DNA of 64,000 nt, taken from positions 224,001 to 288,000 of the forward strand of contig CAVWIH010000014.1 in the NCBI GenBank assembly GCA_963755025.1. Direction: 5' to 3'. Positions within the stretch are counted from its first letter, which is position 1, and each line of letters begins with the position of its first letter. A program made the position numbers and the translations under genes. The DNA comes from an uncultured Actinomycetes bacterium (GTDB taxonomy: Bacteria; Actinomycetota; Thermoleophilia; UBA2241). Shown in pieces: positions 26,113 through 42,409 of this stretch. The notes under the pieces are model-generated. The model saw nothing but the letters and a program-made list of their open reading frames with translations, ran no database searches and was not told where the DNA came from.

Positions 26113-27273
26113 TCAGTGCATGCCGGTCGCCGCCTGCAGCAGCAGGCTGCTGATGCCGACCGTCGCCCACAGGATGGCGCCGAGCGCCAGCGGGCGCAGC
26201 CCGGCGCTGCGCAGGGCCAGGGGACGCGTGGCCAGCCCGATGCCGCTCAGCGCCATGGTGATCAGGAACAGCGACAGCGTCGACAGCGGCGAGTGGGCGC
26301 CGTGCGGCACGGCGCCCAGGCTGTTGAGCGCGGCCGCGACCAGGAACCCGACCAGGAACCAGGGTACGAGCTGCCAGACCCGCAGGCGGCCCACAGGGCG
26401 ATCGCCGCGGCGTGTGCCGGTGGCCGGCGCGGCGCCGGGGCCTGCGCTCGGAGCGCCGGCGGCCGCCGCGGCCTCGACCGCCGCATTCGCGGCGGCCTTC
26501 GTCTCGCGACGTCTGACCATGACGCTCAGGGCGATGGTGATGGGAATGATCATGAGCGTGCGCGTGAGCTTCACGACGACGGCATAGTCGCCCGCTGCGT
26601 GGCCGTAGGTGTAGGCCGCCGCGATCACCGAGCTCGTGTCGTTGATGGCCGTGCCCGACCACAGACCGAAGGCGTGTTGCGAGAGGCCGAGAAGGTGGCC
26701 CAGCGTCGGGTAGGTCAGCACCGCGATCACGTTGAAGGCGAAGATCGTGCTGATGGCGTACGCGACGTCGGCCTCGGCCGCGCCGATCACCGCCGTGGTG
26801 GCGGCGATCGCCGAGGCCCCGCAGATACCGGTGCCCACGCCGATCAGGGTGCGCAGGTCGCCGTCGATGCCCAGCAGACGCCCGACCCCCCAGGCGGCCA
26901 GCAAGGCGAGAGACAGCGTGCCCAGGAGCACGGGGAGCGACGACCAGCCGGTCTTGGCGATCTGGGCGAGCGAGAGGCCCGTGCCCAGTACGACGATGGC
27001 GAGCTGCAGCACGACGCGGCTGGCGAACGACACGCCGGGCTTCAGGGGCGCATCGAGACCGCGCTTGCGCACCACGACGCCGAGCCCGACGCCGAAGACG
27101 ATGCCGCAGACCGGGGCGCCGACGACGGGCACGAGGCGCCCCACGGCCGTCGCCACCGCGGCGATGGCCGCACACGCCAGCAAGCCCGGCGCCAGCGCCA
27201 GCCCGCGCCGGCTGGGCGGCGGGGGTGGGACGGGCCAGATCTCGAGGGCGTCGGGATCGATGACTGAGGTCAC
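26113..27273 (-). CDS. yeiH: YeiH/UPF0324 putative sulfate exporter
   Basis: LIGVGTGICGASAIAA, GTAINDTSSV, VVVKLTRTL, VPWFLVGF. Confidence 0.88.
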   Translation of the reverse strand: MTSVIDPDALEIWPVPPPPPSRRGLALAPGLLACAAIAAVATAVGRLVPVVGAPVCGIVFGVGLGVVVRKRGLDAPLKPGVSFASRVVLQLAIVVLGTGLSLAQIAKTGWSSLPVLLGTLSLALLAAWGVGRLLGIDGDLRTLIGVGTGICGASAIAATTAVIGAAEADVAYAISTIFAFNVIAVLTYPTLGHLLGLSQHAFGLWSGTAINDTSSVIAAAYTYGHAAGDYAVVVKLTRTLMIIPITIALSVMVRRRETKAAANAAVEAAAAAGAPSAGPGAAPATGTRRGDRPVGRLRVWQLVPWFLVGFLVAAALNSLGAVPHGAHSPLSTLSLFLITMALSGIGLATRPLALRSAGLRPLALGAILWATVGISSLLLQAATGMH

Positions 27274-27465
27274 GGCGACGGCTTTCCTTGGGCCGGCGTG
27301 CTCGCCGGCGAACGCCGTCGTCGGCAGGGCACGGATTTGCCCCGGCGCGGCCGCCTTGGCCTTACGTCGCCGGGCCTGTCGAGTCTACTCGCTCTCGCGG
27401 TCGGGCCTGCGTGTCGCGGCCCCAGGAGGTCGGTTCGTGAATGACAACGCCGGCGTTGGCCGAAG

Positions 27466-27481
27466 ATACCCATAGGGGTAT
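27466..27481. promoter_or_regulatory. CsoR/CstR/RcnR-family operator
   Basis: ATACCC-ATAG-GGGTAT. Confidence 0.75.
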
Positions 27482-27521
27482 ATTGGTGGCCATCTTGGAG
27501 GCCGACCGCACGGAGTCCCGC

Positions 27522-27707
27522 ATGATCGTCGTCGACGACCGCTATTGTCCGCAGAACCACGCCTGTCCCGCCGTGGCCGCCTGTCCCGAAGGCGCCATGA
27601 CGCAGGACGGTGTCTCTGCCGCGCCGCGCATCGACCACGACCTCTGCACCGAGTGCGGGGTGTGCACGGGCCTCTGTCGCGTCTTTTCGCTGGTGCGCGA
27701 CGAATAG
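27522..27707 (+). CDS. Small 4Fe-4S ferredoxin
   Basis: CPQNHACPAVAACP and CTECGVCTGLC. Confidence 0.85.
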   Translation: MIVVDDRYCPQNHACPAVAACPEGAMTQDGVSAAPRIDHDLCTECGVCTGLCRVFSLVRDE

Positions 27708-27724
27708 GAGCGCGACCGCGCCCC
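27707..27724 (-). promoter_or_regulatory. Putative SECIS hairpin of zinc-ribbon gene 1
   Basis: GGGGCGC-GGTC-GCGCTCC; loop begins 20 nt after the UGA at 27740-27738. Confidence 0.65.
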
Positions 27725-27728
27725 GAGG

Positions 27729-27935
27729 TCAGCGACCTCAGCCGTAGCCGCCCGTCGGTACCGCACCACAGGTCGGCGCCGACAGAGGTCCGTTGCTGAG
27801 GAAGCTGCCCACCGTCTGGCGGACGTCGCTCGAGCCGCACTTGGGGCAGCGCTTCTGGCGGTCCTTGATCGCTCCGGCCGTCTCTACGACGAAGCCGTGG
27901 TCGCACGCCTTGCAGACCAGCTTGATAATCGCCAC
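27729..27935 (-). CDS. FmdB-family zinc-ribbon protein, probable selenoprotein (UGA at 27740-27738)
   Basis: CKACDH...CPKCGS...CGAVPTGGYG-TGA-GGT-CGC-TGA. Family call is firm; Sec readthrough is inferred. Confidence 0.75.
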
Positions 27936-27961
27936 GGCATCCCTCCTGAGAATGACGTCAT

Positions 27962-27977
27962 ATACCCTAGGGGGTAT
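27962..27977. promoter_or_regulatory. CsoR/CstR/RcnR-family operator
   Basis: ATACCC-TAGG-GGGTAT, 26 nt upstream of zinc-ribbon gene 1. Confidence 0.8.
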
Positions 27978-28180: not shown

Positions 28181-28507
28181 ATGAAGGGCACAGCAGACGT
28201 GCAGGCCGGCATCTGCGGGCACCACACGACCGTCGAGGCGCAGAGCGGCGATGCCCGTCGCGTGACGTTCACGATCGAGACGACCTGCGACAACATCGAG
28301 CGCTTCACGGCGCAGGTCGCGGCGGTCGTGCCCGTCGACGCCTACAAGGAGATCAACCCGAAGGCGTCGAGCGACGTGCTCGACTGCGGGCGCGAGGCCC
28401 ACATCTGCACCGACTGCATCGTGCCGGCGTCGGCGCTCAAGGCGTTGCGCATAGCGACCGGCCTGGCGCTGCCGGGCGACGCGGCCATCGCCATCGCCAA
28501 AGGCTGA
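28181..28507 (+). CDS. Small Cys-rich conserved protein (DUF6951-like)
   Basis: AGICGH, ETTCDNI, HICTDCIVP, GLALP pattern. Confidence 0.6.
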   Translation: MKGTADVQAGICGHHTTVEAQSGDARRVTFTIETTCDNIERFTAQVAAVVPVDAYKEINPKASSDVLDCGREAHICTDCIVPASALKALRIATGLALPGDAAIAIAKG

Positions 28508-28511
28508 CGCT

Positions 28512-29717
28512 TCAGGGCAGCTGCACCAGGCCGTTCTTCATCTTCGTCATGTAGTAGCGCTCGAAGCCCAGCTTGGCCCAATGCGACCAGGGCCCGGGGA
28601 TCATGATCTCGAACTTGCGCGGCTTGAAGACGCGGTCGAGGCCGATGATCATGCCCTGCGTGCCGGCGTCCATGATGCACAGCGGGCGGATGTCGCCGAA
28701 GGGCTTGACGATGGGCTCGGCCCCGGTGATGGCGGCGGCGATGTTGTGGGCCGTCACTTTGGCCATGACCTCGGCCATCCAGCCCGTCTTGGGCACGCCG
28801 GTCGGCACCTCGGTCGGGTGCGGCGGCTTGACCTGCACCGCGACCCCGGCGGCGTAGACATTGGCGAAGTCCAGATGCCGGTAGCCGTCGTCGACGGGCA
28901 CAAAGCCACGGGCGTCGCCGAGGCCGTCGGAGTCGAGGATGGCCTGCACGCCGGTGAACGGCGGAATGACGATGGCGTACTTGTGCTCGAGCACGCGCCC
29001 GTCGGACAGCGTGATGGCGCCCTTGCTCACGGCGCTCGTCGAGACGTTGGCGATCGCCTGCACGCCGAGCATCTTGAAGTAGCCCTTGAGCATGGCCTCG
29101 CCGCCGCGCATGCCGCCGATGCCGAAGTGGCCCAGGAAGGGCTCGGCGGTGAAGAAGGTGAGCGGCGCCTCGCGGCGGATCTTCGCCTGGCGCAACGCGC
29201 GGTCGATGTTGAAAGCCACCTCGTACTCGGCGCCGAAGCAGCTCGCCCCCTGGGTCGAGCCGATCACCACCGGACCGGGGTCCTGCACGAAGTCGAGCCA
29301 GGCCTTGGCGGCCTCCATGGCGTGGGGCAGGTTGCAGACCGACCAGGTGGTGCCGTCGGCCGGACCAAAGCCGGGCACGACGGCCCAGTCGTACTTGGGG
29401 CCGGTGGCGATCAGCAGGTAGTCGTAGCCGATCTCGCCCTGGTCTGTGATCACCTTGTTCTCGGCCGGCAGGATGCGCTCGGCCGTCGCGAGCGTGAAGT
29501 CGATGCCGCGGCGGCGCAGAGCCGGCTCGAGGGCGAAGCTGATCTGCCCGGGCTTGCGCCACCCGGGCACCACCCAGATGAGCGAGGGAATGAAGACGAA
29601 GCGCGGGTCGCGCGAGACGACGGTGACCTCGGCGCGGCCGTCGAGGTCGCGCTTGAGCTTGAAGGCGGCGCTCAGGCCGGCGAAGCTCCCCCCAAGGACG
29701 ACGATCCGTGGCGCCAT
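28512..29717 (-). CDS. sqr: Sulfide:quinone oxidoreductase (type I-like)
   Basis: FAD-binding GGSFAG; three Cys in type I positions (WSVCNLPHA, GASCFG, LCIMDAG); VPKTG motif; AKLGFERYY C-terminal helix. Confidence 0.88.
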   Translation of the reverse strand: MAPRIVVLGGSFAGLSAAFKLKRDLDGRAEVTVVSRDPRFVFIPSLIWVVPGWRKPGQISFALEPALRRRGIDFTLATAERILPAENKVITDQGEIGYDYLLIATGPKYDWAVVPGFGPADGTTWSVCNLPHAMEAAKAWLDFVQDPGPVVIGSTQGASCFGAEYEVAFNIDRALRQAKIRREAPLTFFTAEPFLGHFGIGGMRGGEAMLKGYFKMLGVQAIANVSTSAVSKGAITLSDGRVLEHKYAIVIPPFTGVQAILDSDGLGDARGFVPVDDGYRHLDFANVYAAGVAVQVKPPHPTEVPTGVPKTGWMAEVMAKVTAHNIAAAITGAEPIVKPFGDIRPLCIMDAGTQGMIIGLDRVFKPRKFEIMIPGPWSHWAKLGFERYYMTKMKNGLVQLP

Positions 29718-29854: not shown

Positions 29855-30061
29855 TCAGCCCTGCCTTGTCGTGTCGAAGCCCAGCGGACGGTAGAGCTGG
29901 CACGAGCCCGTTGCGGCCGTGAACAGGAGTACCGTGCCCACGAGGCCCGCACCGAGGCCCAGCGGCCTCCTGGCCTTCAGGCCGGCGGCGAGAGCGAGGA
30001 GGCCGGCGCCAAGGATCGCCCTTGCCATGCGGTCGACGGCGCCTTCGTTGCGAGGGAACAT
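29855..30061 (-). CDS. DUF2892 (YgaP-like) small membrane protein
   Basis: RNEGAVDRMARAILG...TAATGSCQLYRPLGFDT. Confidence 0.85.
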   Translation of the reverse strand: MFPRNEGAVDRMARAILGAGLLALAAGLKARRPLGLGAGLVGTVLLFTAATGSCQLYRPLGFDTTRQG

Positions 30062-30067
30062 GACTGC

Positions 30068-30394
30068 CTACCTTTCCGGTTCGAGAGCCCGTGCGCGGAG
30101 CGTGAGCTCGCGCCCGAGGATCTCGTCGATCAAGGCGCAGGCTTGCGCCAGGCGTGGGTCGACGACGCCCCACGACACGCGGCCGCCCTCGCGGGTGCGC
30201 CGCACCAGCCCCTCGCGCTGCAGCACGGCGAGGTGCTGCGACACGTTGGGCCGGCTGACCCCCAGGAGCTCCGCGAGCTCGCTCGGCGTACGGGGGCCGT
30301 CGCACAGGTGGTGCATGAGCTCGTGGCGCGTGGGGTTGGCGAGGGCCGCGAACACGGCGGCGTGGATGGCGTAGCGTTGTCGTTCATCGTCCAT
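30068..30394 (-). CDS. ArsR/SmtB-family regulator, BigR/SqrR-like
   Basis: ALANPTRH, VSQHLAVL; Cys pair in HHLC and AQAC. Confidence 0.85.
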   Translation of the reverse strand: MDDERQRYAIHAAVFAALANPTRHELMHHLCDGPRTPSELAELLGVSRPNVSQHLAVLQREGLVRRTREGGRVSWGVVDPRLAQACALIDEILGRELTLRARALEPER

Positions 30395-30484: not shown

Positions 30485-30880
30485 ATGGATATGCAGATCT
30501 ACTTCCCCGGCGGCAAGCGCGTCTTCGCCGGTTACGGCGAGTTCACCGTCGAGACCGATCAACCCGCGCAGGGCGGAGGCGACGGTTCTGCTCCGGCTCC
30601 CTTCGATCTGTTCCTGGCCTCGATCGGCACCTGCGCCGGCATCTACGCGCTCGGCTTCATGCAACAGAGGGACCTCGACCCGACCGACGCAAAGATCACC
30701 ATGCGCACCCATCGCGATCCGGCAAGCGGGCTCGTCAGCAAGATCGATCTTGAGCTGCAGCTTCCGGCGGACTTCCCCGACAAGTACCGCGACGCCGTGG
30801 TCAACGCGATGAACCTCTGCACCGTCAAGAAGCACCTGCACCAGCCACCGGCCTTTGAGATCACCACGGTGGCCGGCTGA
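30485..30880 (+). CDS. OsmC-family protein
   Basis: TDQP..GG..SAPAPFDLFLASIGTCAG...NLCTVKKHL. Confidence 0.9.
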   Translation: MDMQIYFPGGKRVFAGYGEFTVETDQPAQGGGDGSAPAPFDLFLASIGTCAGIYALGFMQQRDLDPTDAKITMRTHRDPASGLVSKIDLELQLPADFPDKYRDAVVNAMNLCTVKKHLHQPPAFEITTVAG

Positions 30881-31464
30881 TGGCCGACGCCTTCGACCCC
30901 CAGCACGCGGGGCGCTTCGAAGACCCGGCCCGCCTCGCCGCCCTGCCGCAGGCCGCGGTCGTGTCGCTGCTGCGCCTTGGTGGCGGCGAGACAGTGGTCG
31001 ACTACGGGGCGGGTACCGGCACCTACACGATCGGCGTGGCCGAGGCCGTCCCCGACGGCCGCGTCATCGCCGTCGAGGCGTTACCGCGCCTGGCCGAGAT
31101 GCTGCGCGCCAAGCTCACCCCAGAGCTCATCGACCGACTCGAGGTCGTCGAGACCGACTCCAACTCCGTGCCGGCACCCGATGGAGTCGCCGACCGCGTC
31201 GTCATGATCGACGTACTGCACCATCTGTACGACCAGCCCGAAGCGCTTGCGGAGGTCACGCGGCTGCTGCGTCCTGGAGGCCTCTTTGTCGTCGTGGACT
31301 GGGGCGACCGCGAGAGGCCTGTGGGCCCACCGCTTGACCACGTACTGGGGCTGCTAGCCGCGGTGCGCGAGTTGGTCTCGGGCATGGGCCTCTACGAGAT
31401 CGAGGGGCACGAGCCGGGCACGCTACTGCCCTGCCATCTCGCCGTGGTAGCCGGCAAGGCCTGA
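30880..31464 (+). CDS. Class I SAM-dependent methyltransferase
   Basis: VVDYGAGTG, VLHH, LLRPGG, DW..GPP. Confidence 0.88.
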   Translation: MADAFDPQHAGRFEDPARLAALPQAAVVSLLRLGGGETVVDYGAGTGTYTIGVAEAVPDGRVIAVEALPRLAEMLRAKLTPELIDRLEVVETDSNSVPAPDGVADRVVMIDVLHHLYDQPEALAEVTRLLRPGGLFVVVDWGDRERPVGPPLDHVLGLLAAVRELVSGMGLYEIEGHEPGTLLPCHLAVVAGKA

Positions 31465-31588: not shown

Positions 31589-31999
31589 CTAGAGGACCTG
31601 AACGACGTCGGCTTCTTCGCAGCCCGCGATGTACTGGGCGATCCCGACGATGTCGTCGACGACGTCGACGAAGTCTTCGAGCGCGCCGGCGCCCCAGATC
31701 TTGCCCGCCGTGCCGCAACAGTGGATCTTGACCTTGCCCTCGGCCTTGAGGCTCCGCAGGTTGTCGAGCGGCGCGGGCACGCTGTTGTCGGCCATGCCGC
31801 TCAGCAGCTCCGCGTGAAGCTCCGGTCGATCGGCGTAGGCGCCGCCGCCGGCAACGTCCTTGCGAAAGGCGTAGGCGCCGCCGAGCAGCAGGTAGATGTC
31901 GACCTCCATATCGAGCGCCACGGCGCCGCCGGTGAGCGTGCTGGCGACGAGCAGCTTCTCGATGCTGCCGCTCGCCAGGCCGATGATCATCGAACTCAT
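31589..31999 (-). CDS. DsrE-family sulfur carrier protein
   Basis: ASGSIEKL, KIHCCGTA, DIVGIAQYI; last gene of the hdr operon. Confidence 0.75.
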   Translation of the reverse strand: MSSMIIGLASGSIEKLLVASTLTGGAVALDMEVDIYLLLGGAYAFRKDVAGGGAYADRPELHAELLSGMADNSVPAPLDNLRSLKAEGKVKIHCCGTAGKIWGAGALEDFVDVVDDIVGIAQYIAGCEEADVVQVL

Positions 32000-32061: not shown

Positions 32062-32592
32062 TCAGATGAACAGGTTGACGTTAGCCTCGTCGGCCTCGCC
32101 CAGGTACGAGCCCACGCCGGCGAACTCGAGGCCGTCCATGAGCTCCTCTTCGCGCAGGCCCATGACGTCCATCGACATGGTGCAGGCGACCATCTTGATG
32201 CCCTGTTCCCTGGCGCTCTCGATGAGCTCGTCGAGGGTCATGACGTTGTTGTCCTTCATGACCTTCTTCATGAGGGGCGCGCCCATGCCGGCGAAGTTCA
32301 TCTTCGACAGGCCGAGCTTGTTGGCGCCCCGCGGCATCATCTTGCCGAACATCGCCTGCAGCGCCGACTTCTTCTTGCCGACCTGCACCTTCTCCGCCTT
32401 GCGCAGGGCGTTCAGGCCCCAGAAGGTGAAGAACATGGTGACGTCGTCGCCCATGGCCGCGGCGCCGTTGGCGATGATGAAGGCGGCCATCATCTTGTCG
32501 AAGTCGCCGCTGAACACGATGATCGTCTTCTTCGTGGTGCGCACGTCGACCGAGTCGGCGCTCTCCATGACGGCTTGTGTCTGGTCGTCCAT
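32062..32592 (-). CDS. DsrE/DsrF/DrsH-like sulfurtransferase (DsrE_2 type)
   Basis: FSGDFDK, AFIIANGAAAMG, FFTFWGL, VACTMSMDVMG. Confidence 0.9.
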   Translation of the reverse strand: MDDQTQAVMESADSVDVRTTKKTIIVFSGDFDKMMAAFIIANGAAAMGDDVTMFFTFWGLNALRKAEKVQVGKKKSALQAMFGKMMPRGANKLGLSKMNFAGMGAPLMKKVMKDNNVMTLDELIESAREQGIKMVACTMSMDVMGLREEELMDGLEFAGVGSYLGEADEANVNLFI

Positions 32593-32605
32593 CAAGTGCT
32601 CTCCT

Positions 32606-33583
32606 TCAAGATGCGTAGGCTGCGCGCAGGTACTGCGAGATGTCCTTGAAGCGCATGGTGTCGCCGGCCGCGTTGCTCAGGTTCACGAAGCACATGGGGC
32701 ACATGGTGACCGCGTCGGGCGCGGCCTCGCGGAGCTGCGCGACGCGCTTCTCCGCGTTGGCGATCGCCTTGGCCGGGTAGAGCGACTCGACGGGGCCGCC
32801 GCAGCACCAGGTCTGGCGGCCCGAGTTCTCGGGGTCGCGGACGGTCAGGCCGGCCGCGGCGAGCAGCTCGCGCGGCTCGTCGACGATGCCCTCGTAGCGG
32901 GCAAAGACGCAGGAGTCGTGCACCACGATCTCGCCCGAGAGCGCCCTGGCGGTGTGGCCGTTCGCGCCGAAGCCCTTCTCGACCAGCACCTCGAGGTAGC
33001 TCTTCACCTCGACGTCGTAGCCGCTCAGGATCTTGGGATAGACGCTGCGCAGCATGGTCGTGGTGTGCGGGTCGATGGTGATCACGGTCTTCACGCCGCG
33101 CGCTTTGAACGCGGCGTGGACCTTCTTGGCGTGCTCGACCACGACCTCGTCGAGGCCCAGGTCGTAGGCCAGGGCGCCCGAGTAGAGGTCGTCCTCGTAC
33201 AGGGCTCCGAACTGCACGCCGGCCTTGCGCAACAGGTGGACGACGTTGACCGGCACCTGGTCGTAGACGGCGCGCTCCGCTGCCGAGGGCCGTGCCATGA
33301 ACGCGGAGATGTTGAGCATGCGGTTCACGCGACGGCCCAGGCCGGTGTACTTGCCGAGCCACGAGTCGCCGAACTTGATCTCCGCCTTCACGAGGCCCTC
33401 GATGTACGGGATGAGCTGGTACATCAGCCCCGTATAGAGCACGGTCTCCCCGCCGCGCGGCAGGTCGAGGCCCTCGGTCCACTTGGTAGCCACCCGGGTC
33501 GACAGGGGAAGCACCGACTTTCGCAGGCGCAGGTTGTCGCCCAGGATGCCGATCACGTCACCGGTAGGAAGAGGCATCGTCAT
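32606..33583 (-). CDS. HdrB/HdrD-like CCG-domain Fe-S protein
   Basis: C-terminal HDSC, WCCGGP and TMCPMC intact; N-terminal CCG repeat lacks Cys (YTGLMY, DLYSG, TIDPHT). Confidence 0.82.
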   Translation of the reverse strand: MTMPLPTGDVIGILGDNLRLRKSVLPLSTRVATKWTEGLDLPRGGETVLYTGLMYQLIPYIEGLVKAEIKFGDSWLGKYTGLGRRVNRMLNISAFMARPSAAERAVYDQVPVNVVHLLRKAGVQFGALYEDDLYSGALAYDLGLDEVVVEHAKKVHAAFKARGVKTVITIDPHTTTMLRSVYPKILSGYDVEVKSYLEVLVEKGFGANGHTARALSGEIVVHDSCVFARYEGIVDEPRELLAAAGLTVRDPENSGRQTWCCGGPVESLYPAKAIANAEKRVAQLREAAPDAVTMCPMCFVNLSNAAGDTMRFKDISQYLRAAYAS

Positions 33584-33894
33584 CCCTCCCCAAGGCCGTA
33601 GCTGGTTCGCACGATGTGGTGCCGCAGCGTGCGCACGTTCTCGGCGATGTGCACGCCCGCGGGGCAGTTCTCTTCACACATCTTGCAGAGCAGGCAGGAG
33701 AAGACGCTTTCGGTCTCCGCCCTGACCCTGGTCTCCATGCCGAGGAGCACGTACCGGAACAGTTTGCGCACCTCGGCGTCGACGCCCATCGGACAGATGG
33801 CGGAGCACACCCCGCAGTTCATGCAGGCGTCGGCGTTGAACTCGTCGGAGCGCGCCAGCTCCATCGCCAGCCCGGGGTTCACGAGAGCCGTCAT
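33580..33894 (-). CDS. HdrC-like 2x[4Fe-4S] protein
   Basis: CMNCGVCSAICP and CLLCKMCEENCP. Confidence 0.85.
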   Translation of the reverse strand: MTALVNPGLAMELARSDEFNADACMNCGVCSAICPMGVDAEVRKLFRYVLLGMETRVRAETESVFSCLLCKMCEENCPAGVHIAENVRTLRHHIVRTSYGLGEG

Positions 33895-35926: not shown

Positions 35927-38646
35927 GACGCCACCTTCGCTTTCGCCGCTTCGCTCACGTGCGCTCGCTCCAGGTGGGCTGCGGCCTGTGCGACCGCGGC
36001 GCCCGCGTGGAGGATCGAGTCGGGGATGTCCTTGGCCCCGGCGGCCGCGCCGGCGACGAATACGCCGGGGAGGTTGGTGCGACCGGGGTCGAGGTCTTCG
36101 TCGGCCTCGCCGACGTAGAAGTAGTCGTCGAGCGCGAGGGCGCCGTCGCCGTCGCCGAACAGTTCGGCGACCCCGAGGCTGGGCTGCACGCCGACCGCGA
36201 GGACGACCATGTCGTGCTCGGTCTCGGCGAGCGTGCCGCCGTTCTCGATGTCTTCGTAGCGCAGCACGAGGTTGCCCTCGCCCGTCTCGGTGATGCCCGA
36301 GACACGGCCCTTCACGAAGTTGGCGCCCATGTCTTTGGCCTGCTGGTAGAACTCGTCGTAGCCCTTGCCGACCGAGCGCACGTCGATGTAGTAGACGGTG
36401 ACGTCGGCGAGGGGCAAGGCGCCCATGATGAGCTGGTTCTGCTTGACCGAGTACATGCAGCAGATCTTGGAGCACAGCGGGTTGTCGACGGTCTCGTCGC
36501 GCGACCCGGTGCACATGACGTAGGCGATGTTGTCCGGCACCTTGCCGTCGCTGGGGCGCAGCACCGCGTTGTAGGGCCGCGTCGGCGCCAGCAGGCGGTC
36601 CATCTGCATGCCGGTGATCACGTTCTTGTACCGGCCGTACCCGTACTGCGGCTTGGCGTCGGCCGGGAAGAGCCTGAAGCCGGTGGCCAGCACCACGGTG
36701 CCGACCTCGGCCTCGAACTCGCGCTCGCGGTCGTCGAGGTTGATGGCGTCGGCGGGACAGACGTCGACGCAGGCGTGGCACTCCGAGCAGACGCCGCAGT
36801 CGAGGCAGCGGGCGGCGCCGAGGAACGCTTCGTCCTCGGTCAGTGTGGCCTCGGTCTCGGCGAAGTCGCTCGGCGAGGCGCTCATGGCGGCGCTCGACTC
36901 GAGCGGCTCGCGCCGGTCGTAGACGTCTTGCCGGCGAAGCACCGTGTCCTTGTCGACGACGGCCAGAGCCTCGTCGAAGGCGTCCGCGTCCATCGCGGCG
37001 CCCTGCAGGTAACGGTCGATCATGAAGGCGGCGCGGCGGCCGTGGCCGACGGCGCTGTTGATCATCGTGGGGCCGGTGACCACGTCGCCGGCGGCAAAGA
37101 CGTGCGGCACGGCGGTCTGCAGCGTGGCGGGGTCGGCCTTGAGGGTGTGGTTGCCGTTGGTCTCGAGGCCGAACGCCGCCGTGTCGGCGCCCATGCCGGC
37201 GGCGACGATCACGACGTCGCACTCAAGGGACTTGTGCTGACTCTCGTCGTACTCGGGCCTGAAACGGCCGTCGGGGTCGAAGACGCAGGTGCAGACCTTG
37301 AGGTCGGCGCCCTGCACGTGGCCCTCGCCGGTGAAGTGATCGATGCCCCAGCCGTCGTGCAGGGTGATGCCCTCGGCCCTGGCCTCTGCGACTTCGAAGT
37401 CGTGGGCCGGCATCTCTTCGCAGCATTCCAGGCTGACCTGGTCGACCGACGCGGCGTCGAGGCGGCGCGCCGTGCGCGCCGCGTCGATGGCGACGTTGCC
37501 GCCGCCGACCACCAGCACGCGTTTGCCGGCCACGTCGACGGCTTCGCCGAGCTTGACGGCGCGCAGGAACTCGAGCGCGGTCTGCACGCCGGCGAGCTCC
37601 TCGCCCGGCACGCGCAGACTCACGGACTTGTGGGTGCCCGTCGCCACAAGGACGGCGTCGAAGCCGTCGTTCTTGAGACCCGCGACGTCGTCGACCCGCG
37701 TGGCGGTCGCGATCTCGACACCGATCGCGGTGACGTTGGCGATGTCGTCGTCGATCACGTCGTTGGGCAGCCGGTATGCGGGGATGCCGAGGCGCAGCAT
37801 GCCGCCGGCCTGCGGGGCTGATTCAAAGATCTTGACGCCGTAACCCTTGCGCGCAAGCTGCCAGGCGGCGGTCAGGCCGGCCGGACCCGAGCCCACGACG
37901 GCGACCTTCTTGCCGTTCTGCTCGGGCTGCTCGAGAGGCTTCAGCTCTGCCTGCCCGTAGTGCCGGTCGGCGATGAAGCGCTTGAGCCGGCGAATGGGCA
38001 GCGGGCCCTCGAGCTCGCCGCGCGTGCACTGCTCTTCGCAGGGCGCGTAGCAGGCGCGCCCAAGCGAGCCGACCAGCGGCGTCGTCTCGAGCACCAGGCC
38101 AAAGGCCTCTTCGTATTCGCCGCTGCGCACGCGGGCCACGTAGCCGTGCGCCTTGATGCCCGCGGGGCACTCGTAGGTGCACGGCGAGACGCCGGCGCGG
38201 TCGATGACCGCCTTCTTGGGCACCGCCTGCGGAAAGGCGATGTAGGCGGCGCGGCGCGACACCATGTCGGCGTTGAACTCGTCGGGTACCGCCACGTTGC
38301 AGGCCATCTCGCACAGCCGGCAGCCGGTGCAGGCGGCCTCGTCGATGAACTTGGGCTTCTGGCGGATGGTGGCATGGTAGCCGCCGTTGCCGTCGGCGCG
38401 GATGCCGTCGACCTCGGCGTAGGTGAGCACGTCGATGTTGGGGTGGTGGACGGTGGCGGCCATCTTCGGGGTGGAGATGCAGCTCGCGCAGTCGAGCGTT
38501 GGAAAGACCTTGCTGAGCAGGATCATCTTGCCGCCCACGCTGGCCTGCTTTTCGACGACGAGCACCTTGTAGCCCATGTCGCCGAGCTTGAGGGCCGACT
38601 CCATGCCGCCGATGCCGCTGCCTACTACAAGAGCGTCGTACTTCAT
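35923..38646 (-). CDS. hdrA: HdrA with an inserted GltD/NfnB-like NAD(P)H module (HdrL-type)
   Basis: GSGIGG, KVFPTLDCASC, CTGCRLCEMAC; insert CTYECP, GRACYAPCEEQC, GSGPAG, GGGNVAID, AAGDVVTGP; then CLDCGVCSECHAC and CTGSRD..CSKICC. Confidence 0.9.
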   Translation of the reverse strand: MKYDALVVGSGIGGMESALKLGDMGYKVLVVEKQASVGGKMILLSKVFPTLDCASCISTPKMAATVHHPNIDVLTYAEVDGIRADGNGGYHATIRQKPKFIDEAACTGCRLCEMACNVAVPDEFNADMVSRRAAYIAFPQAVPKKAVIDRAGVSPCTYECPAGIKAHGYVARVRSGEYEEAFGLVLETTPLVGSLGRACYAPCEEQCTRGELEGPLPIRRLKRFIADRHYGQAELKPLEQPEQNGKKVAVVGSGPAGLTAAWQLARKGYGVKIFESAPQAGGMLRLGIPAYRLPNDVIDDDIANVTAIGVEIATATRVDDVAGLKNDGFDAVLVATGTHKSVSLRVPGEELAGVQTALEFLRAVKLGEAVDVAGKRVLVVGGGNVAIDAARTARRLDAASVDQVSLECCEEMPAHDFEVAEARAEGITLHDGWGIDHFTGEGHVQGADLKVCTCVFDPDGRFRPEYDESQHKSLECDVVIVAAGMGADTAAFGLETNGNHTLKADPATLQTAVPHVFAAGDVVTGPTMINSAVGHGRRAAFMIDRYLQGAAMDADAFDEALAVVDKDTVLRRQDVYDRREPLESSAAMSASPSDFAETEATLTEDEAFLGAARCLDCGVCSECHACVDVCPADAINLDDREREFEAEVGTVVLATGFRLFPADAKPQYGYGRYKNVITGMQMDRLLAPTRPYNAVLRPSDGKVPDNIAYVMCTGSRDETVDNPLCSKICCMYSVKQNQLIMGALPLADVTVYYIDVRSVGKGYDEFYQQAKDMGANFVKGRVSGITETGEGNLVLRYEDIENGGTLAETEHDMVVLAVGVQPSLGVAELFGDGDGALALDDYFYVGEADEDLDPGRTNLPGVFVAGAAAGAKDIPDSILHAGAAVAQAAAHLERAHVSEAAKAKVAS

Positions 38647-39113
38647 GCTGCCGATGCCTTTCGCGACGGGCCCAGCTTGGTCAGGACCGCGGAGAACTCG
38701 TGCATGTAGTTGGTGAAGGGCTCCGCGCAGACCGAGCAGATGGCCGCCATGCGCAGGCGTTGCGGCTCGTAACCGTGGTCGACGAGCAGCGTCTGGGCGG
38801 CGGCCATGATCTGCGAGGTGCGTTCGCTGCAGTCGGACAGGTAGGCGCACTCGTCGCCGTCGGCGGCGACGAAGACGCCGTCGAAGCCCTGCTGCACGGC
38901 GTAGAGCGCCCAGCTCGGCTTGATGCCGCTCGTGCAGGGCACGCTGATCACCATGACGTTGGGCGAGTAGTGCATGTGCGAGCTGCCCGCCAGGTCGATC
39001 CCCGGGTCGGAGATGTTGTTGGTGGACAGCACCAGGATACGGGGCACGAAGCTGTCGTCCCCGCCGTGCGCCGACGCAGCCGCGTCGACCGCCGTTGCGG
39101 CATCGGGCGCCAC
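38643..39113 (-). CDS. mvhD: MvhD/FlpD-like iron-sulfur subunit with an altered Cys set
   Basis: GIDLAG..HMHY, VPCTSG, GFDGVFV, ECAY, PQRLRMAAICSVC..F. Confidence 0.82.
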   Translation of the reverse strand: MAPDAATAVDAAASAHGGDDSFVPRILVLSTNNISDPGIDLAGSSHMHYSPNVMVISVPCTSGIKPSWALYAVQQGFDGVFVAADGDECAYLSDCSERTSQIMAAAQTLLVDHGYEPQRLRMAAICSVCAEPFTNYMHEFSAVLTKLGPSRKASAA

Positions 39114-39364
39114 TACTTCATCTTCCTGACGTAGAGCTTCATGAAGCCGGGCTCTTCGACGGTGCCGAGGAACTCGTGGCCCATCTTCTTGCACCACGCC
39201 GGGAGGTCTTTCTGCGTGCCCGTGTCGGTGGCCATGACCTCCATGACGCCACCCACGGAGACGCTGGGAATGCCCTTCTTGGCGGCCAGGATGGGGCCTG
39301 GGCACGAGGTGCCTCTGGCGTCGACTACCTTCTCGGCCTGGATCGTGGTCAGGTCTTCTGTCAT
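39113..39364 (-). CDS. tusA: TusA-family sulfurtransferase
   Basis: VDARGTSCPGP, ATDTG, WCKKMGHE; AAGGAGG RBS. Confidence 0.92.
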   Translation of the reverse strand: MTEDLTTIQAEKVVDARGTSCPGPILAAKKGIPSVSVGGVMEVMATDTGTQKDLPAWCKKMGHEFLGTVEEPGFMKLYVRKMK

Positions 39365-39487: not shown

Positions 39488-39865
39488 CTAGGGCGCCGGC
39501 GGCAACGGCAGGTGCTGGACCGCCTCGAGCACGCCGGGAGCGAGCAACGACTCGCCCAGCTCGCGGTGCTGCTCGATCAGGGCCTGACGAATGAGGGTGC
39601 AGCCCTGGATGAACTTGGGGTTGGTCATCGAGTAATAGACCGTCTGCGCGTCTTTACGCGGCTTGACGAGCATCTGGTCCTTGAGGACGCGCAGGTGCTG
39701 CGAGACGTTGTGCACGGAGATCCCCAGGGCCTCGGCGAGGTCGCCGACGCACAGCTCCTGCTGGCTCAGGGCGTACAAGATGCCGAGCCGGTGAGGGTTC
39801 GCCAGGGCCCTGCAGAGCTCCGCGTGCATCCTGAAGAGGGGCTCCAGGTCGGCGGCCTGCGGCAT
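39488..39865 (-). CDS. ArsR/SmtB-family regulator (alternative start 39892)
   Basis: AELCRALANPHRL, ELCVGDL, VSQHLRVL, IQGC. Confidence 0.88.
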   Translation of the reverse strand: MPQAADLEPLFRMHAELCRALANPHRLGILYALSQQELCVGDLAEALGISVHNVSQHLRVLKDQMLVKPRKDAQTVYYSMTNPKFIQGCTLIRQALIEQHRELGESLLAPGVLEAVQHLPLPPAP

Positions 39866-40017
39866 GGTGTGATTGTCGTTCCGTATTTGCATAGTTTCAT
39901 ATATACGCTTTACCGCAGTCACGGTCAAGCAGTTGGTCGTCGCGGCACCCCGAGCTCCGTGCACCGAGTTCGAACGGCGGCCCGCTTTGCACAAGACTCT
40001 GCGGGAACTATACTGAC

Positions 40018-40033
40018 ATACCCTAGGGGGTAT
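40018..40033. promoter_or_regulatory. CsoR/CstR/RcnR-family operator
   Basis: ATACCC-TAGG-GGGTAT, identical to 27962-27977. Confidence 0.8.
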
Positions 40034-40106
40034 ATAGGTGCCAGGTAGGCGAGGGGCTTTCGGTCACTCGAGCCGCCCTCGGCACAGAAGCGAGAAGTGA
40101 GGGATC

Positions 40107-40316
40107 GTGGCGCTGTACGACTTTGTCTGTGGCGACTGCGACCACACCTTTGAGGTGTTCTCGATCGGCTTTCTCAAAGCCGAGCAGGAGGAGTGCCCGC
40201 AGTGTGGCTCGCACAACGTTCGTCAGAAGTTCTCGAGCTTCCTGACCGCAGGTTCCGGCTCCGGCTCCGCCTCGGGCTGCGACGCGCCGTCGGGCAGCCC
40301 GTTCGGCTGAGGCTGA
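40107..40316 (+). CDS. FmdB-family zinc-ribbon protein, probable selenoprotein (UGA at 40308-40310)
   Basis: LYDFVCGDCDHTFE...CPQCGS...CDAPSGSPFG-TGA-GGC-TGA. Family call is firm; Sec readthrough is inferred. Confidence 0.78.
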
Positions 40317-40322
40317 GACCGG

Positions 40323-40340
40323 GCGGCGCGGTCGCGCCGC
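40323..40340 (+). promoter_or_regulatory. Putative SECIS hairpin of zinc-ribbon gene 2
   Basis: GCGGCGC-GGTC-GCGCCGC; loop begins 19 nt after the UGA; possible lower stem GGCT/AGCC. Confidence 0.68.
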
Positions 40341-40415
40341 AAAGGGAGCCGACCAGAGGCGGATGCGAGTCCGTGGTCTGATCCACAAGGATCACTCCAG
40401 ACAGCGAAGGGGACC

Positions 40416-40505
40416 ATGGCTACAGTGACCATCCATGCGAAGAGCCGACCGTTCGTCGGTTGCGACCGGCGGCGTCTCGCCGCGGCCCCCGGCGCCGGGA
40501 GGTAG
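40416..40505 (+). pseudogene. 29-aa ORF resembling a glutaredoxin with its centre deleted
   Basis: GAAGGGG RBS; MATVTIHAKS-RPFVGCDRRRLAAAPGAGR resembles Grx/NrdH N- and C-termini without CxxC. Confidence 0.35.
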
Positions 40506-40509
40506 CGCG

Positions 40510-40865
40510 ATGTGGCCGTTTCGCCGTGCGCCCCGCGCACCTGCTTCGGCGCCCACCACGATCGACGTCCGTGAGGCGTGGGCCAGAACGCGCAAGGGCG
40601 CGCGGCTGGTCGATGTGCGCTCGGGGCGCGAGTTCGCCGGGGGCCACCCCAAGGGCGCGCGCAACCTGCCGCCGGCGCGCATAAAGTCCGGCGAGACCGG
40701 CCTGGCGCTGGAAGACGAGATCCTCGTCATCTGCCTGAGCGGGCATCGCAGCCCCCGGCAGGCCAGAAAGCTGGCGGCCATGGGATACGTCAACGTCGCC
40801 AACGTGAGCGGCGGCCTGCTCGCCTGGAACGCGCCGGTCTGCCGGTCAAGGGGTCGCGCCGATAG
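40510..40865 (+). CDS. Rhodanese-domain sulfurtransferase (-1 frameshift near 40826)
   Basis: GGAGGT RBS; LVDVRS, GGHPKGA, active loop ICLSGHRS, VSGGLLAW then ERAGLPV in the shifted frame. Confidence 0.88.
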
Positions 40866-41037
40866 CCCTTTCACGCACGGCCCGGTGATCGCCGGGCACG
40901 ACATCGATCTCTGCCTTGGTTCTCCGGTCTGAACAGCTCCGGATAAGGCGGCCACGCCGGGGCCATCAGCACGGCGATCCCAAAGCGATGACGACGAGAG
41001 CCGGCGCGCGAATAACTCGAACGAGGAGGGTCAAGGG

Positions 41038-42409
41038 ATGAAGGTGCTGGTGCTCGGCGGGGGTCCCGCCGGCTACGTGGCCGCGGGCCGTGCCGCACAA
41101 CTCGGCGCCGAGGTGACCGTCGTCGAGGCGCGCGAGGTCGGCGGCATCTGCCTTAACCGCGGCTGCGTTCCGACCAAGGCGATGGTCGCGGGCGCCCAAC
41201 GCTTAGACCAGGCGCGGCGGGCGGCCGAGTACGGCGTCACCACCGGCGAGGTGAGCCTCGATTTCGCCTCGTTCATGTCCCGCAAAGACGCCGTCACCGC
41301 GCAGCTGCGCGACGGTGTCGCGCGGCTGCTCAAGGCGCGGCACGTCGAGGTCGTGGCGGCTCGCGGCCGCCTGGCGGGGCCGGGCAAGGTGGCGCTCGAC
41401 GACGGAACCGAGCTCACGGGCGACGCCGTCATCCTGGCGAGCGGCTCCGACCCGGTGCGCCTGTCGCTCTTCGATTTCGCAGACCCGCGCGTGATGACGA
41501 GCGACGAACTGCTCGTCGTCGACCATGTTCCGGCCAGCCTCGCCATCGTGGGCGGCGGCGTGATCGGCTGCGAGTTCGCCTCGATCTTCGCCCGGCTGGG
41601 CAGCAAGGTGACCGTGATCGAGATGCTCGACCAGCTCCTGCCCGGCGAAGACAAACGTGCCGGTCGCACCCTGCAGACGGCGTTCACAAAAGCCGGCATC
41701 GGGGTCGTCGTCAAAGCCGGCGTGGACAGCGTGGACCAGACCGACCCCTCAGGCGTGAGACTGCGCCTGGCCAACGGCAGCGAGCTCGTCGCCGAAGCCG
41801 TGCTGGTCGCCGTCGGACGCCGACCGCTCAGCCGTGGGCTGGGCTACGAAGAGGCGGGCGTCGAGGTCGGCCCTCAGGGCTTCGTCGTCACCGACGAGAC
41901 GATGCGCACGAAAGTCGCGGGGGTGTTCGCGGCGCGCGACGTGGCCGGCGCTCCGCTGCTCGCCCACTGGGCCTACCACCAGGGCGCGATCGCCGCCGAG
42001 AACGCCGTGACCGGCTCCCGCATCGCCTACGATCGGCGCATCGTCCCCTCGTGCGTGTTCAGCTCACCAGAGGTGGCGAGCTTCGGCCTGAGCGAGGACC
42101 GCGCCGCGGCCGAGGGCCGCGAGGTGCCAGATCGCCCACGCGCGTTTCAACGGCAGCTCCAAGGCCGTGGTCGACGGCGACGCCGACGGCTACGTGCGCA
42201 TCTGCTGCGAGCCGGGCGGCGGCGCCATTCTGGGTGCCAGCCTGGTGGGGCCGCACGTCAGCGACCTGGTGCACGAGCTCGCCCTGGCGGCGCAGGCCGG
42301 CTTGACCCTCAGCCAGGTGACGGAGACCATCCACGCCCACCCCACGCTGAGCGAGGCGATCGGTGAGGCGGCGCTGAGCGGCTTGGGACGCGGGATGCAC
42401 AGCCTGTGA
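41038..42409 (+). CDS. lpdA: Dihydrolipoamide dehydrogenase-like flavoprotein (+1 frameshift near 42127)
   Basis: GGGPAG, GGICLNRGCVPTK redox disulfide, GGGVIGCE; IHAHPTLSEA in the shifted frame. Confidence 0.85.

Follow-up and report, generated by a model that had tools for sequence, protein, structure and literature searches.

A conserved Hdr-type operon joined to sulfur carriers, and candidate selenoprotein zinc ribbons, in an uncultured Thermoleophilia bacterium

Introduction

What does a heterodisulfide reductase (Hdr)-like complex do when its genes stand beside sulfur carriers and no gene for the lipoate-binding protein LbpA is found nearby? The question is raised by a stretch of 64,000 nucleotides, called the window here, from an uncultured actinobacterium of the class Thermoleophilia (positions 224,001 to 288,000 of contig CAVWIH010000014.1, assembly GCA_963755025.1). 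Between positions 26113 and 42409 the window encodes a sulfide:quinone oxidoreductase (Sqr), TusA and DsrE-type sulfur carriers, Hdr-like subunits, a rhodanese, an Lpd-like reductase, a YeiH-type transporter, and two small zinc ribbons (ZnR1 and ZnR2) with an in-frame TGA codon. A preliminary description, made before any database search, took these 16 kb for one integrated sulfane-sulfur island built around a lipoate-independent Hdr, with small selenoproteins as its possible redox carriers. Pfam and NCBIfam profile scans of the window proteins, with gene starts and ends checked by translation, found every listed gene in its place. As set out below, the region falls into a core operon conserved in other genomes and a shell of genes linked to it only locally. 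Two things appear to be new, namely a conserved Hdr variant joined to sulfur carriers and a selenocysteine (Sec)-bearing FmdB zinc ribbon whose selenocysteine insertion sequence (SECIS) lies behind the stop codon.

Contig C14, from which the window is taken, belongs to a metagenome-assembled genome (MAG; G000) of 3.37 Mb in 39 contigs, 84% complete with 5% contamination. To our knowledge, Hdr-like complexes with sulfur carriers have so far been of two kinds, the LbpA-dependent sHdr of sulfur oxidisers and the DsrC-linked modules of sulfate reducers. A complex of TusA/DsrE2, HdrL, HdrA, MvhD, and an HdrB with a single CCG domain would be a third. Its hosts belong to uncultured lineages common in peat, soil, and wetland metagenomes. 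If sulfane sulfur were turned over there with NAD(P)H and ferredoxin, this would bear on sulfide tolerance or on a hidden sulfur cycle that competes with methanogenesis.

The core operon and its conservation

The genes arsR2-tusA-mvhD-hdrL-hdrA-wHTH-hdrC-hdrB-dsrE2 almost certainly form a core operon that is conserved across genomes. In the window they all lie on the minus strand. The regulator ArsR2 (39488-39892) has three conserved cysteines. It is followed by the sulfur carrier TusA (39113-39364; PF01206, 72.3 bits, 3e-20) and by an MvhD/FlpD [2Fe-2S] subunit (38643-39047, with a start at 39032 or 39047; PF02662, 3.2e-27). HdrL (35923-38646; 907 aa) is an HdrA with a GltD/NfnB-like NAD(P)-binding insert (Pyr_redox_2, 7.7e-40; Fer4_20, 1.9e-16), and the adjoining HdrA (34187-35926; 579 aa) is of the long methanogen type (5odc_A, 2.4e-108; NF040770, 442 bits). 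Next comes a conserved, Cys-free, winged-helix-like protein of 99 aa (wHTH; 33891-34190) with a weak HTH_20 match, whose start and stop overlap the adjoining genes of the operon. An HdrC-like 2x[4Fe-4S] subunit (33580-33894), recognised by Pfam and NCBIfam, and an HdrB-like subunit with a single CCG domain (32606-33583; one Pfam CCG match, residues 220-302) precede the last gene, which encodes a DsrE2-type sulfur carrier (DrsE_2; 32062-32595; PF13686, 6.6e-64, 215 bits). DsrE2 is placed at the level of the Pfam family, as it scores 91.6 bits on the equivalog model NF047629 (cut-off 210). TusA, DsrE2, the HdrB-like type, and wHTH are each single-copy in the genome, as are Sqr and YeiH.

The evidence for conservation comes from a search with the HdrB-like protein against one genome per species. 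It returned 72 loci, in 66 of which HdrB had at least 50% identity, and 44 of these 66 had complete 10-kb flanks (the full-flank loci). A gene was counted as present in a full-flank locus at 40% identity or more with half coverage. HdrC, HdrA, and TusA were present in 43 of the 44, wHTH and MvhD in 42, and HdrL in 39. ArsR2 was present in 26 and DsrE2 in 21, and most of the remaining loci had a DsrE2 at 32-39% identity. The carriers belong to the Thermoleophilia, Acidimicrobiales, Dormibacteria, and Chloroflexia, and to Bacillota MAGs. The preliminary description had proposed a gene-neighbourhood survey in which the components of the island should co-occur. The core, in which the genes from tusA to hdrCB reach 39-43 of 44 loci, passed this survey; the shell did not, beyond the genus and its close kin. 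When the open reading frames (ORFs) of 52 loci of at least 13 kb were clustered, no gene family outside the core occurred in more than 11 loci.

The operon is widespread but patchy within its class. Of 301 genomes sampled from the class, 42 had an HdrB-like gene (22/55 in family f1, 14/55 in f4, 5/52 in f3, none in other families), and the operon is therefore regarded as an accessory unit. One genome of the same genus (G231; locus L138, G231:C3:566000-585999) keeps dsrE2-wHTH-hdrA-hdrL-mvhD-tusA-arsR2-sqr without hdrC and hdrB. No account of a tusA-mvhD-hdrL-hdrA-hdrCB-dsrE2 operon was found in open-access papers, subscription papers and supplements being outside that search.

What kind of Hdr?

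The Hdr encoded here is, with high confidence, not an sHdr. The HdrA matches 5odc_A at 2.4e-108 over two stretches and the short sHdrA 6tjr at only 1.6e-30, and at 579 aa it is much longer than sHdrA flavoproteins, which have about 340 aa (PDB 6tjr). Furthermore, the sHdr set has two HdrC/HdrB pairs (C1B1 and C2B2), whereas the window and the related loci have one each. In 17 aligned orthologues of the HdrB-like protein the only invariant cysteines are C225, C260, C261, C295, and C298, which lie in the C-terminal half and are spaced as one CCG motif. In other words, the N-terminal CCG cysteines of a two-CCG, methanogen-type HdrB have been lost. DsrK-like catalytic subunits with a single CCG act on protein-bound sulfur.

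The preliminary description had noted that the sHdrC1B1AHC2B2 gene set and lbpA/gcvH are missing. Indeed, neither lbpA/gcvH nor a second hdrCB pair was found in the window. A tblastn search with GcvH gave no match in the 66 orthologous loci and a single one in a distant locus of 27% identity. A PF01597 scan of the genome found one GcvH, inside a gcvH-gcvPA-gcvPB-lpd-lipA cluster on another contig. A canonical sHdr with lbpA elsewhere in the genome would have spoken against a distinct system, and none was found in the 84%-complete MAG. The proposal of a distinct, LbpA-free Hdr tied to sulfur carriers thus gains support from its conservation in other genomes.

The sHdr-LbpA system of Hyphomicrobium denitrificans, Acidithiobacillus, and others (PMC6067878) shares several features with the operon. 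Both are cytoplasmic, in both the genes for Hdr-like Fe-S flavoproteins stand next to tusA and to a carrier gene of the dsrE type (here TusA in 43 of 44 loci and a DrsE_2 match of 215 bits), and both have a gene for a small protein between hdrA and hdrC-hdrB. They differ in that the operon has a long methanogen-type HdrA, an extra HdrL and MvhD, one HdrCB pair rather than two, and one CCG, and that LbpA and lipoate-ligase genes were absent from the 66 loci and the genome.

The closest similarity of HdrA (2.4e-108) is to methanogen Hdr. Like MvhADG-HdrABC and HdrA2B2C2 (5odc, 8rvv, 7bkb), the operon combines a long HdrA with N-terminal and ferredoxin domains, MvhD, HdrC, and a CCG-type HdrB. 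It appears from sequence comparison that it encodes a soluble Fe-S flavoprotein complex of the methanogen HdrABC-MvhD kind. The differences are nonetheless substantial. There are two unlike HdrA copies, HdrB lacks the N-terminal CCG cysteines, the host is an actinobacterium without coenzyme M and coenzyme B, and the genes are set among sulfur carriers. No hydrogenase or formate dehydrogenase input module was found among the operon genes of the window or among the families recurring in more than 11 of the 52 clustered loci; NAD(P)H would enter through HdrL instead.

A third relative is found among sulfate reducers and sulfur disproportionators, where FlxABCD-HdrABC is a comparable module. HdrL is the name given to an HdrA with an inserted NAD(P)/FAD module in the part of PMC12142623 that treats it, and the window protein has this architecture: PRK12771 matches residues 142-648 with 452 bits, and the HdrA2 model (440 bits) matches on either side. 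In the modules described there, HdrA with a second NAD(P)/FAD domain likewise stands beside MvhD, and the modules are proposed to link NAD(P)H with a redox couple of protein-bound sulfur (PMC12142623, same part). Their proposed partner is DsrC/DsrAB or a formate dehydrogenase, whereas TusA and DsrE2 stand here, and no NIR_SIR domain was found in the genome and no Dsr was seen.

Three more clusters of HdrA, HdrL-like, MvhD, and CCG genes, without TusA or DsrE, were noticed in the genome (C16:600-4400, C20:98300-105800, and C27:23100-32600). The organism appears to be rich in HdrA-type flavoproteins despite its aerobic oxidases.

A possible mechanism and its direction

How might such a complex work? 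The favoured model, held at somewhat better than even confidence, is an NAD(P)H- and ferredoxin-linked Hdr complex that acts on sulfane sulfur bound to TusA/DsrE2, with the reductive direction preferred. Of its parts, the substrate is fairly probably carrier-bound sulfane sulfur, while the reductive direction taken by itself is an even call. Sulfane sulfur would be loaded onto TusA/DsrE2, in this genus from sulfide through the adjoining Sqr and relayed by the rhodanese, and the carriers would present it to the single non-cubane cluster of HdrB. There it would be reduced to sulfide by electrons passing from NAD(P)H to HdrL, the FAD of HdrA, and HdrC. MvhD and ferredoxin would form a second, low-potential branch. 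Redox potentials make NAD(P)H-driven persulfide reduction feasible, while oxidation of sulfane sulfur to sulfite with NAD(P)+ is strongly uphill. The preference for reduction is based on these potentials and on the occasional occurrence of CoA-persulfide-reductase-like genes as neighbours.

Several points weigh against this model. First, Sqr next door makes reduction back to sulfide look futile and favours the oxidative direction discussed below. Second, once NAD(P)H has driven the reduction of a persulfide, little energy is left to reduce ferredoxin, so the label "bifurcating" is only an analogy. Third, HdrCB is missing in G231; this may be an operon in decay or a complex that works without the disulfide-reductase part. 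Fourth, the neighbours MoaE, Mrp/NUBPL, SufC, and cysteine desulfurase point to cofactor sulfur supply rather than detoxification. Moreover, claims of absence are weak because the MAG is only 84% complete with 5% contamination.

An oxidative, lipoate-independent analogue of sHdr is the first alternative, and it is rather unlikely. Sulfur would pass from Sqr to rhodanese, TusA, DsrE2, and HdrB, where sulfane sulfur would be oxidised to sulfite. Electrons would run from HdrC to HdrA, HdrL, and NAD(P)+, with HdrL in place of LbpA and Lpd, and YeiH would export the oxyanion. Such a route would avoid the futile cycle of Sqr and reductase. It also fits the order hdrA-small protein-hdrC-hdrB with flanking tusA and dsrE, which resembles half of the sHdr set as we take that layout to be. 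Sqr stands in or beside the operon in this genus, and YeiH is within reach in G000, G231, and G156. The genome encodes both a haem-copper oxidase and a bd oxidase, which makes sulfide oxidation via quinone feasible. However, the uphill energetics given above, the long HdrA, the single HdrCB pair and CCG domain, and the failure to find LbpA all speak against it. Outside close kin, Sqr was present in none and YeiH in one of the 44 full-flank loci. No sulfite-handling enzyme was seen either, the genome search having covered the NIR_SIR domain and not other sulfite enzymes.

Operators and regulators

What controls these genes? The window contains matches to ATACCCnnnGGGGTAT, a palindromic operator pattern of the CsoR/CstR type that was searched with up to two mismatches. 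Eight strand-matches were found where 0.19 were expected, and none of 100 shuffles reached eight. The three operators of the preliminary description proved to be real, and a fourth was found. The first (27466-27481) overlaps a promoter-like site of the ferredoxin gene, with a -10-like box within 27456-27484. The second (27962-27977) lies between ZnR1 and the DUF6951 gene. The third (40018-40033) is just downstream of a promoter-like site (39986-40014) that faces ZnR2, and the fourth (50344-50359), which is outside 26113-42409, is upstream of a DUF302-like gene (49913-50308, minus strand). In the segment 26000-42600 there are four promoter-like sites, three of which overlap or abut operators, compared with 1.0 +/- 1.0 sites in shuffles. 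Genome-wide the pattern has eight matches, which include the four window sites, one before a third zinc-ribbon gene (ZnR3), and one before a rhodanese paralogue. This paralogue (G000:C14:309090-309565; L135:5091-5565) is 74% identical to the window rhodanese, and its operator (C14:309122) stands about 30 nt before the ORF.

The DUF302-like protein (131 aa) was labelled by eye and has no NCBIfam match; its orthologue in G231 (70% identity) lies within the island, between OsmC and the methyltransferase. Two further genes between the island and operator 4, labelled by eye, encode a CGGC-motif protein (47753-48304) and a Cys-rich Fe-S-like protein (48565-49866), and 4 of 52 loci have ORFs similar to this pair close to the operon.

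The CsoR-type operators appear to belong to the ZnR and ferredoxin genes and not to the hdr operon. An operator was found upstream of 27 of 30 ZnR genes (loci L085-L114), mostly at a fixed distance, and upstream of none of 14 in a second batch. Of 46 hdr loci, no more than 5 carry an operator in the 1.5 kb before tusA. Operator 3 is thus assigned to ZnR2, and control of the hdr operon by CsoR-type operators, which had been considered, was dropped on the same count. The ZnRs, the ferredoxin, the rhodanese paralogue, and the DUF302 gene would then form the regulon of a CstR-like repressor. Separately, L062, L063, L064, and L068 each have an operator-like palindrome some 1.4 kb ahead of tusA.

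The only CsoR-family gene of the genome (locus L012, G000:C1:19875-23105) is preceded by an imperfect copy of the operator. A methyltransferase gene, 44% identical to that of the island, follows it, which suggests a repressor-methyltransferase pair, and a DedA-like membrane gene (by eye) precedes it. In the repressor a Lys aligns with the copper-ligand His of 4m1p and 4adz, and the result is an x-C-x-C motif. The sections of PMC8643695 that deal with these regulators give x-C-x-C as a fingerprint of candidate persulfide sensors, describe a core of the Streptococcus mitis cst operator that is almost the same palindrome as in the window, and count known persulfide sensors in both the ArsR and the CsoR families. 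As far as its sequence goes, the repressor combines the motif and the cst-like operator of the CstR type. The regulon likely responds to persulfide rather than copper. With the cst regulons of Firmicutes (CstR, SQR, rhodaneses, and CoA persulfide reductase; PMC8643695, same sections) it shares the x-C-x-C repressor, a nearly identical palindrome, and the occurrence of rhodanese and SQR in the neighbourhood or in the regulon itself. Three candidate Sec zinc ribbons, along with a ferredoxin and DUF302, set it apart; no gene for a persulfide dioxygenase was noticed, and the Hdr operon has an ArsR-type repressor to itself.

The two Cys-containing ArsR regulators that had been described were found, ArsR1 with two cysteines and ArsR2 with three. 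Among 30 orthologues the three ArsR2 cysteines are retained in 29, 29, and 30, and they may be equivalent to the Cys pair of SqrR/BigR. The operon would be derepressed when ArsR2 reacts with persulfides, and in other phyla when a CsoR-family protein without the ligand His does so. CsoR-family genes are found 1.4-2.3 kb upstream of tusA in L060, L066, L068, and L075 (Dormibacteria, Chloroflexia, and Acidimicrobiales), instead of ArsR2 or besides it, and in these a Gly replaces the copper-ligand His.

Two points count against persulfide sensing. ArsR2 scores 50.2 bits on the BigR model NF040642, against a cut-off of 155, and the CsoR-like protein could conceivably respond to copper or to another metal. 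In that case the Cys/Sec tails of the ZnRs would bind Cu(I), and the link to sulfur genes would be coincidental. Cys/Sec pairs do bind soft metals, the operators of copper and persulfide sensors in the CsoR family look alike, and in the PDB the repressor is matched best by the nickel sensor InrS (5fmn, 5.2e-14). A metal regulon is nevertheless unlikely. The exchange of the ligand His for Lys gives x-C-x-C, the regulon members seen are rhodanese, ferredoxin, DUF302, and ZnRs, and no copper ATPase or chaperone gene was seen beside the eight operator matches, although the genome was not searched for copA and copZ.

Neighbours connected with cofactor synthesis

Could the operon supply sulfur for cofactors instead of dealing with persulfide stress? 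TusA is a known sulfur donor for cofactor and thionucleoside pathways, and persulfides loaded on TusA/DsrE2 by a cysteine desulfurase could be released reductively for the synthesis of Fe-S clusters, molybdopterin, and thionucleosides. Several recurrent neighbours in the 52 clustered loci fit this proposal, namely MoaE (11), the Fe-S carrier ATPase Mrp/NUBPL (11), SufC (10), TrmO (7), and a class-V cysteine desulfurase (7). The list also includes a hexapeptide protein (10), DUF1847 (8), a nitroreductase (6), and a fusion of CoA-disulfide reductase and rhodanese (5). None of the cofactor genes exceeds 11 of 52 loci, however, and the patchy distribution of the operon (42/301 in the class, 22/55 in the family) suits an accessory role more than a housekeeping role. 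The regulators are of the stress-sensor kind, and this genus has Sqr, rhodanese, and OsmC beside the operon. Cofactor supply is rated as quite improbable.

Zinc-ribbon selenoproteins

The zinc ribbons of the window had been described as Sec proteins, and this very probably holds for ZnR1, ZnR2, and ZnR3 alike. ZnR1 (27729-27935, minus strand) has its predicted Sec codon at 27738-27740 and its stop at 27729-27731; ZnR2 (40107-40316, plus strand) has them at 40308-40310 and 40314-40316. Each is followed on its own strand by a SECIS-like hairpin (27707-27724 and 40323-40340, respectively) with a 7-bp stem and a GGUC loop. ZnR3 (G000:C14:92541-92780; L136:4545-4790) stands alone, far from the island, with an imperfect operator 40 nt upstream and a hairpin with a 6-bp stem and a CGUG loop. 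The common ending is C-x8-10-[FY][GT]-UGA-Gly-(x)-stop. On Zn_ribbon_8 (cut-off 34.4) ZnR2 scores 50.4 bits and ZnR1 26.9, and on TIGR02605 (cut-off 31.3), the only and generic NCBIfam match, they score 49.3 and 29.3.

The hairpins are G+C-rich, with 6-7-bp stems and 4-nt loops. They lie 16-17 nt beyond the U of the UGA, and as counted for the SECIS rules the spacing is 19-20 nt in ZnR1 and ZnR2 and 16 nt in ZnR3. All three conform to the published rules for bacterial SECIS elements, which ask for a loop of 3-9 nt, a G in the first two loop positions, and a spacing of 16-37 nt. When the whole genome was scanned for hairpins with a GGUC loop that follow an in-frame TGA, nine matches came up, of which only ZnR1 and ZnR2 had coding-like composition. 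Independent Illumina contigs (X2) cover 40089-40899 and 27135-27770 with one substitution and one indel each. These differences spare both TGA codons, which are thereby confirmed.

The genome has the machinery for decoding Sec: a tRNA-Sec (72.8 bits, anticodon TCA), SelA, and SelB. Within 16 kb of one contig (in locus L137, G000:C28:98000-117999) the gcvH-gcvPA-gcvPB-lpd-lipA cluster occurs together with a SelD-like gene, selA, and selB. The SelD-like ORF lacks the usual N-terminal Cys/Sec loop and may begin upstream of an in-frame TGA.

Further evidence for Sec comes from relatives of the zinc ribbons. Each of 30 fetched ZnR loci has exactly one in-frame TGA, and the ending pattern was recovered in 29 of them (it missed L095). 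A second batch of 20 loci added further families, for a total of 44 distinct 3' ends. In all 44 the Sec codon is followed by Gly or Ala, sometimes by one residue more, and then by TGA, TAA, or TAG. Across 37 aligned ends the hairpin positions pair in 84.0% of cells, compared with 76.6 +/- 1.1% in shuffled alignments, and 14 cells carry double changes, compared with 3.0 in shuffles (0 of 500 reached either value). These figures are lowered by some misaligned divergent rows. Registers slid as controls gave 18.8-65.6% pairing. Thus, the sequence of the hairpin varies between families while its pairing, its distance from the UGA, and the G-rich start of its loop persist. SelA was detected in 26 of the genomes of the first 30 loci.

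Some results weigh against Sec. SelA was not detected in the other 4 of 30 genomes with TGA-type ZnRs (76-93% complete). None of the best 150 of 532 representative clusters (50% identity) ends in [FY]G-C-G, which would have been a Cys-for-Sec homologue. Rfam gave nothing at gathering score in the whole window and only chance-level matches, with no SECIS family, around ZnR2. The folding energies of eight hairpin stretches are not exceptional against shuffles given their G+C (z -2.6 to +0.1), and the case for the hairpin is therefore one of conservation and not of energy. In addition, the ZnR1 hairpin sits between convergent genes and could also be a terminator. Every database entry is annotated with an ordinary stop. 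All 13 annotated relatives found by a word-indexed search cover at most 97% of the query, and the ten whose ends were read stop at ...FG. At least 46 of the best 150 clusters have the same truncated ending, and 22 have classical Cys-rich FmdB tails.

Could the TGAs then be ordinary stops, the hairpins terminators, and the proteins plain FmdB-type zinc ribbons ending in ...FG? Despite the points just listed this is very unlikely, for a second in-frame stop of variable identity follows one or two codons on in all 44 ends, with Gly or Ala between, the hairpin keeps its distance and loop start through compensatory changes, it has no U-tract, that of ZnR2 lies inside an apparent ZnR2-rhodanese-Lpd transcription unit, and Sec machinery is found in 26 of 30 carrier genomes.

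As candidate selenoproteins, the ZnRs appear to be of a new form. In the portion of PMC13188914 that covers them, a 2026 catalogue of 119 prokaryotic selenoprotein families has FmdB only with Sec inside the ribbon motif (UxxU), and the relevant portion of PMC2398784, on Global Ocean Sampling (GOS) data, gives the motif of the FmdB-family selenoprotein as CxxU. These proteins belong to the same zinc-ribbon family (TIGR02605/PF09723) and also use Sec. However, Sec replaces a ribbon Cys in them, whereas in the ZnRs the four ribbon cysteines are kept, the predicted Sec follows a conserved Cys and stands one or two residues before the C-terminal end, and the SECIS lies behind the stop codon. No C-terminal Sec form of FmdB proteins was found described in open-access literature, with subscription papers and supplements outside the search. 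As far as that portion of the 119-entry catalogue goes, the C-terminal form is a family or subfamily missing from it. The family would offer a clean natural example of a bacterial SECIS behind the stop codon, and current annotation truncates its proteins, so that the very residues of interest are lost.

What might the ZnRs do? With Sec decoded by means of the hairpin, they would have a flexible C-terminal Cys...Sec-Gly tail. Animal thioredoxin reductase ends in a Gly-Cys-Sec-Gly tail. Both tails would be flexible, and both pair a Cys with a penultimate Sec that precedes Gly; in addition, ZnR2 is encoded beside an Lpd-like reductase. The ZnRs differ in having 8-10 residues between Cys and Sec and in carrying the tail on a small protein of its own (7 kDa). 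Nor does the Lpd-like neighbour recur, being present in 0 of 29 other ZnR2 loci.

The preliminary description made small selenoproteins the redox carriers of the Hdr, a role that is unlikely for the ZnRs as a dedicated one. ZnR relatives occur in 222 of the 301 sampled class genomes and are thus far commoner than the HdrB-like gene (42 of 301), and in family f6 Sec-type ZnR genes are present and HdrB is found in 0 of 24 genomes. The ZnRs would instead take up or reduce persulfides generally and fast through their selenol and thiol groups, and would not be subunits of the Hdr. A joint reading would combine a lipoate-independent Hdr machine, possibly working in either direction, in peat and soil Actinomycetota, Dormibacteria, and Chloroflexia with the first persulfide-dedicated, CstR-controlled selenoproteins. 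The machine would connect NAD(P)(H) and ferredoxin directly with sulfane sulfur on carrier proteins by way of the one-cluster HdrB, and the selenoproteins would be a large family of 7-kDa zinc ribbons whose Cys...Sec-Gly tail acts in trans. This reading is rather unlikely. If true, it would describe the cytoplasmic engine of a cryptic sulfur cycle in wetlands.

Lineage-specific shell genes

For the remaining genes of the region (Sqr, YeiH, rhodanese, Lpd-like, OsmC, methyltransferase, ferredoxin, and the zinc ribbons), linkage to the core is confined to this genus and its close kin. In the full-flank loci ZnR1 and ZnR2 were each present in 6 of 44, OsmC in 5, ferredoxin and methyltransferase in 4 each, and YeiH in 1; Sqr, rhodanese, and Lpd were present in none. 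The idea of one integrated island of 16 kb does not survive these counts.

On the left of the region, the YeiH-type membrane transporter (26113-27273, minus strand; PF03601, 4.3e-70) is near the hdr operon in G231 and G156 as well. The small ferredoxin-like gene (27522-27707, plus strand; 61 aa, weak Fer4 matches) has orthologues with 63-67% identity that adjoin ZnR genes in L086, L088, L098, L139, and L140. The gene for the small Cys-rich DUF6951 protein (28181-28507, plus strand; PF22263, 1.1e-22) is re-clustered with the island in G231 and G104. Sqr (28512-29717, minus strand) matches Pyr_redox_2 and the structures 3sz0 (Acidithiobacillus ferrooxidans SQR, 1.2e-82) and 3hyv (8.7e-72). Both structure matches are full length, that to 3sz0 spanning residues 4-397, and the positions of the catalytic cysteines were read by eye. 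A YgaP-like transmembrane domain protein (29855-30061; PF11127, 5.9e-17) and ArsR1 (30068-30394; HTH_5, 3.5e-15; NF033788, 77.7 bits), both on the minus strand, are followed on the plus strand by an OsmC-like protein (30485-30880; PF02566, 3.1e-15) and a SAM methyltransferase (30880-31464), whose paralogue stands next to the csoR-like gene on contig C1. Between the methyltransferase and dsrE2 lies a gene for a weak DsrE-like protein (31589-31999, minus strand; PF13686, 2.1e-4, under cut-off), present in 7 of 44 full-flank loci. On the right of the region, a single-domain rhodanese (40510-40932; PF00581, 5.8e-15) and an Lpd-like flavoprotein disulfide reductase (41038-42409; TIGR01350, 373 bits over the first 371 aa) lie on the plus strand after ZnR2.

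The order of the shell genes is shuffled among genomes of the same genus and close kin. The contig of G231 reads ZnR1-YgaP-ArsR1 / OsmC-DUF302-methyltransferase-DUF6951, then YeiH, then the operon, with sqr directly upstream of arsR2. In G166, ZnR2-ZnR1-ferredoxin-ArsR1 / OsmC-methyltransferase precede a complete operon. In G156, ZnR-ferredoxin and the operon are followed by YeiH 3 kb past the operon. A conserved ZnR2-rhodanese-Lpd operon was considered and dropped, as rhodanese and Lpd follow ZnR2 in none of 29 other loci; nothing interpretable was seen among the conserved neighbours of ZnR2 orthologues in 3-kb loci.

Assembly quality and sources

The Lpd-like gene has an apparent frameshift near 42126. 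Contigs from three independent peat and soil runs (X1, X3, and X4) lack one base there, and dropping it puts both frames in register. The split is an assembly error of one base, and a real pseudogene was therefore rejected. Likewise, the 3' end of the rhodanese gene is distorted by an indel at 40829/40830 relative to independent contigs, and the gcv-linked lpd on C28 (G000:C28:106685-108078) is split into two frames. These breaks were also treated as assembly errors, which suggests that the MAG assembly is indel-prone, and its frameshifts are therefore not to be read as pseudogenes. A single-base difference from independent contigs was noted at 27516. The window has a G+C content of ~70%, and contigs that matched the HdrB-like query carry titles of uncultured Thermoleophilia. 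Of the runs listed, the one of RNA matched next to nothing of the stretch. Twenty DNA sequencing runs from 14 studies, four of which supplied the independent contigs, contained at least part of it.

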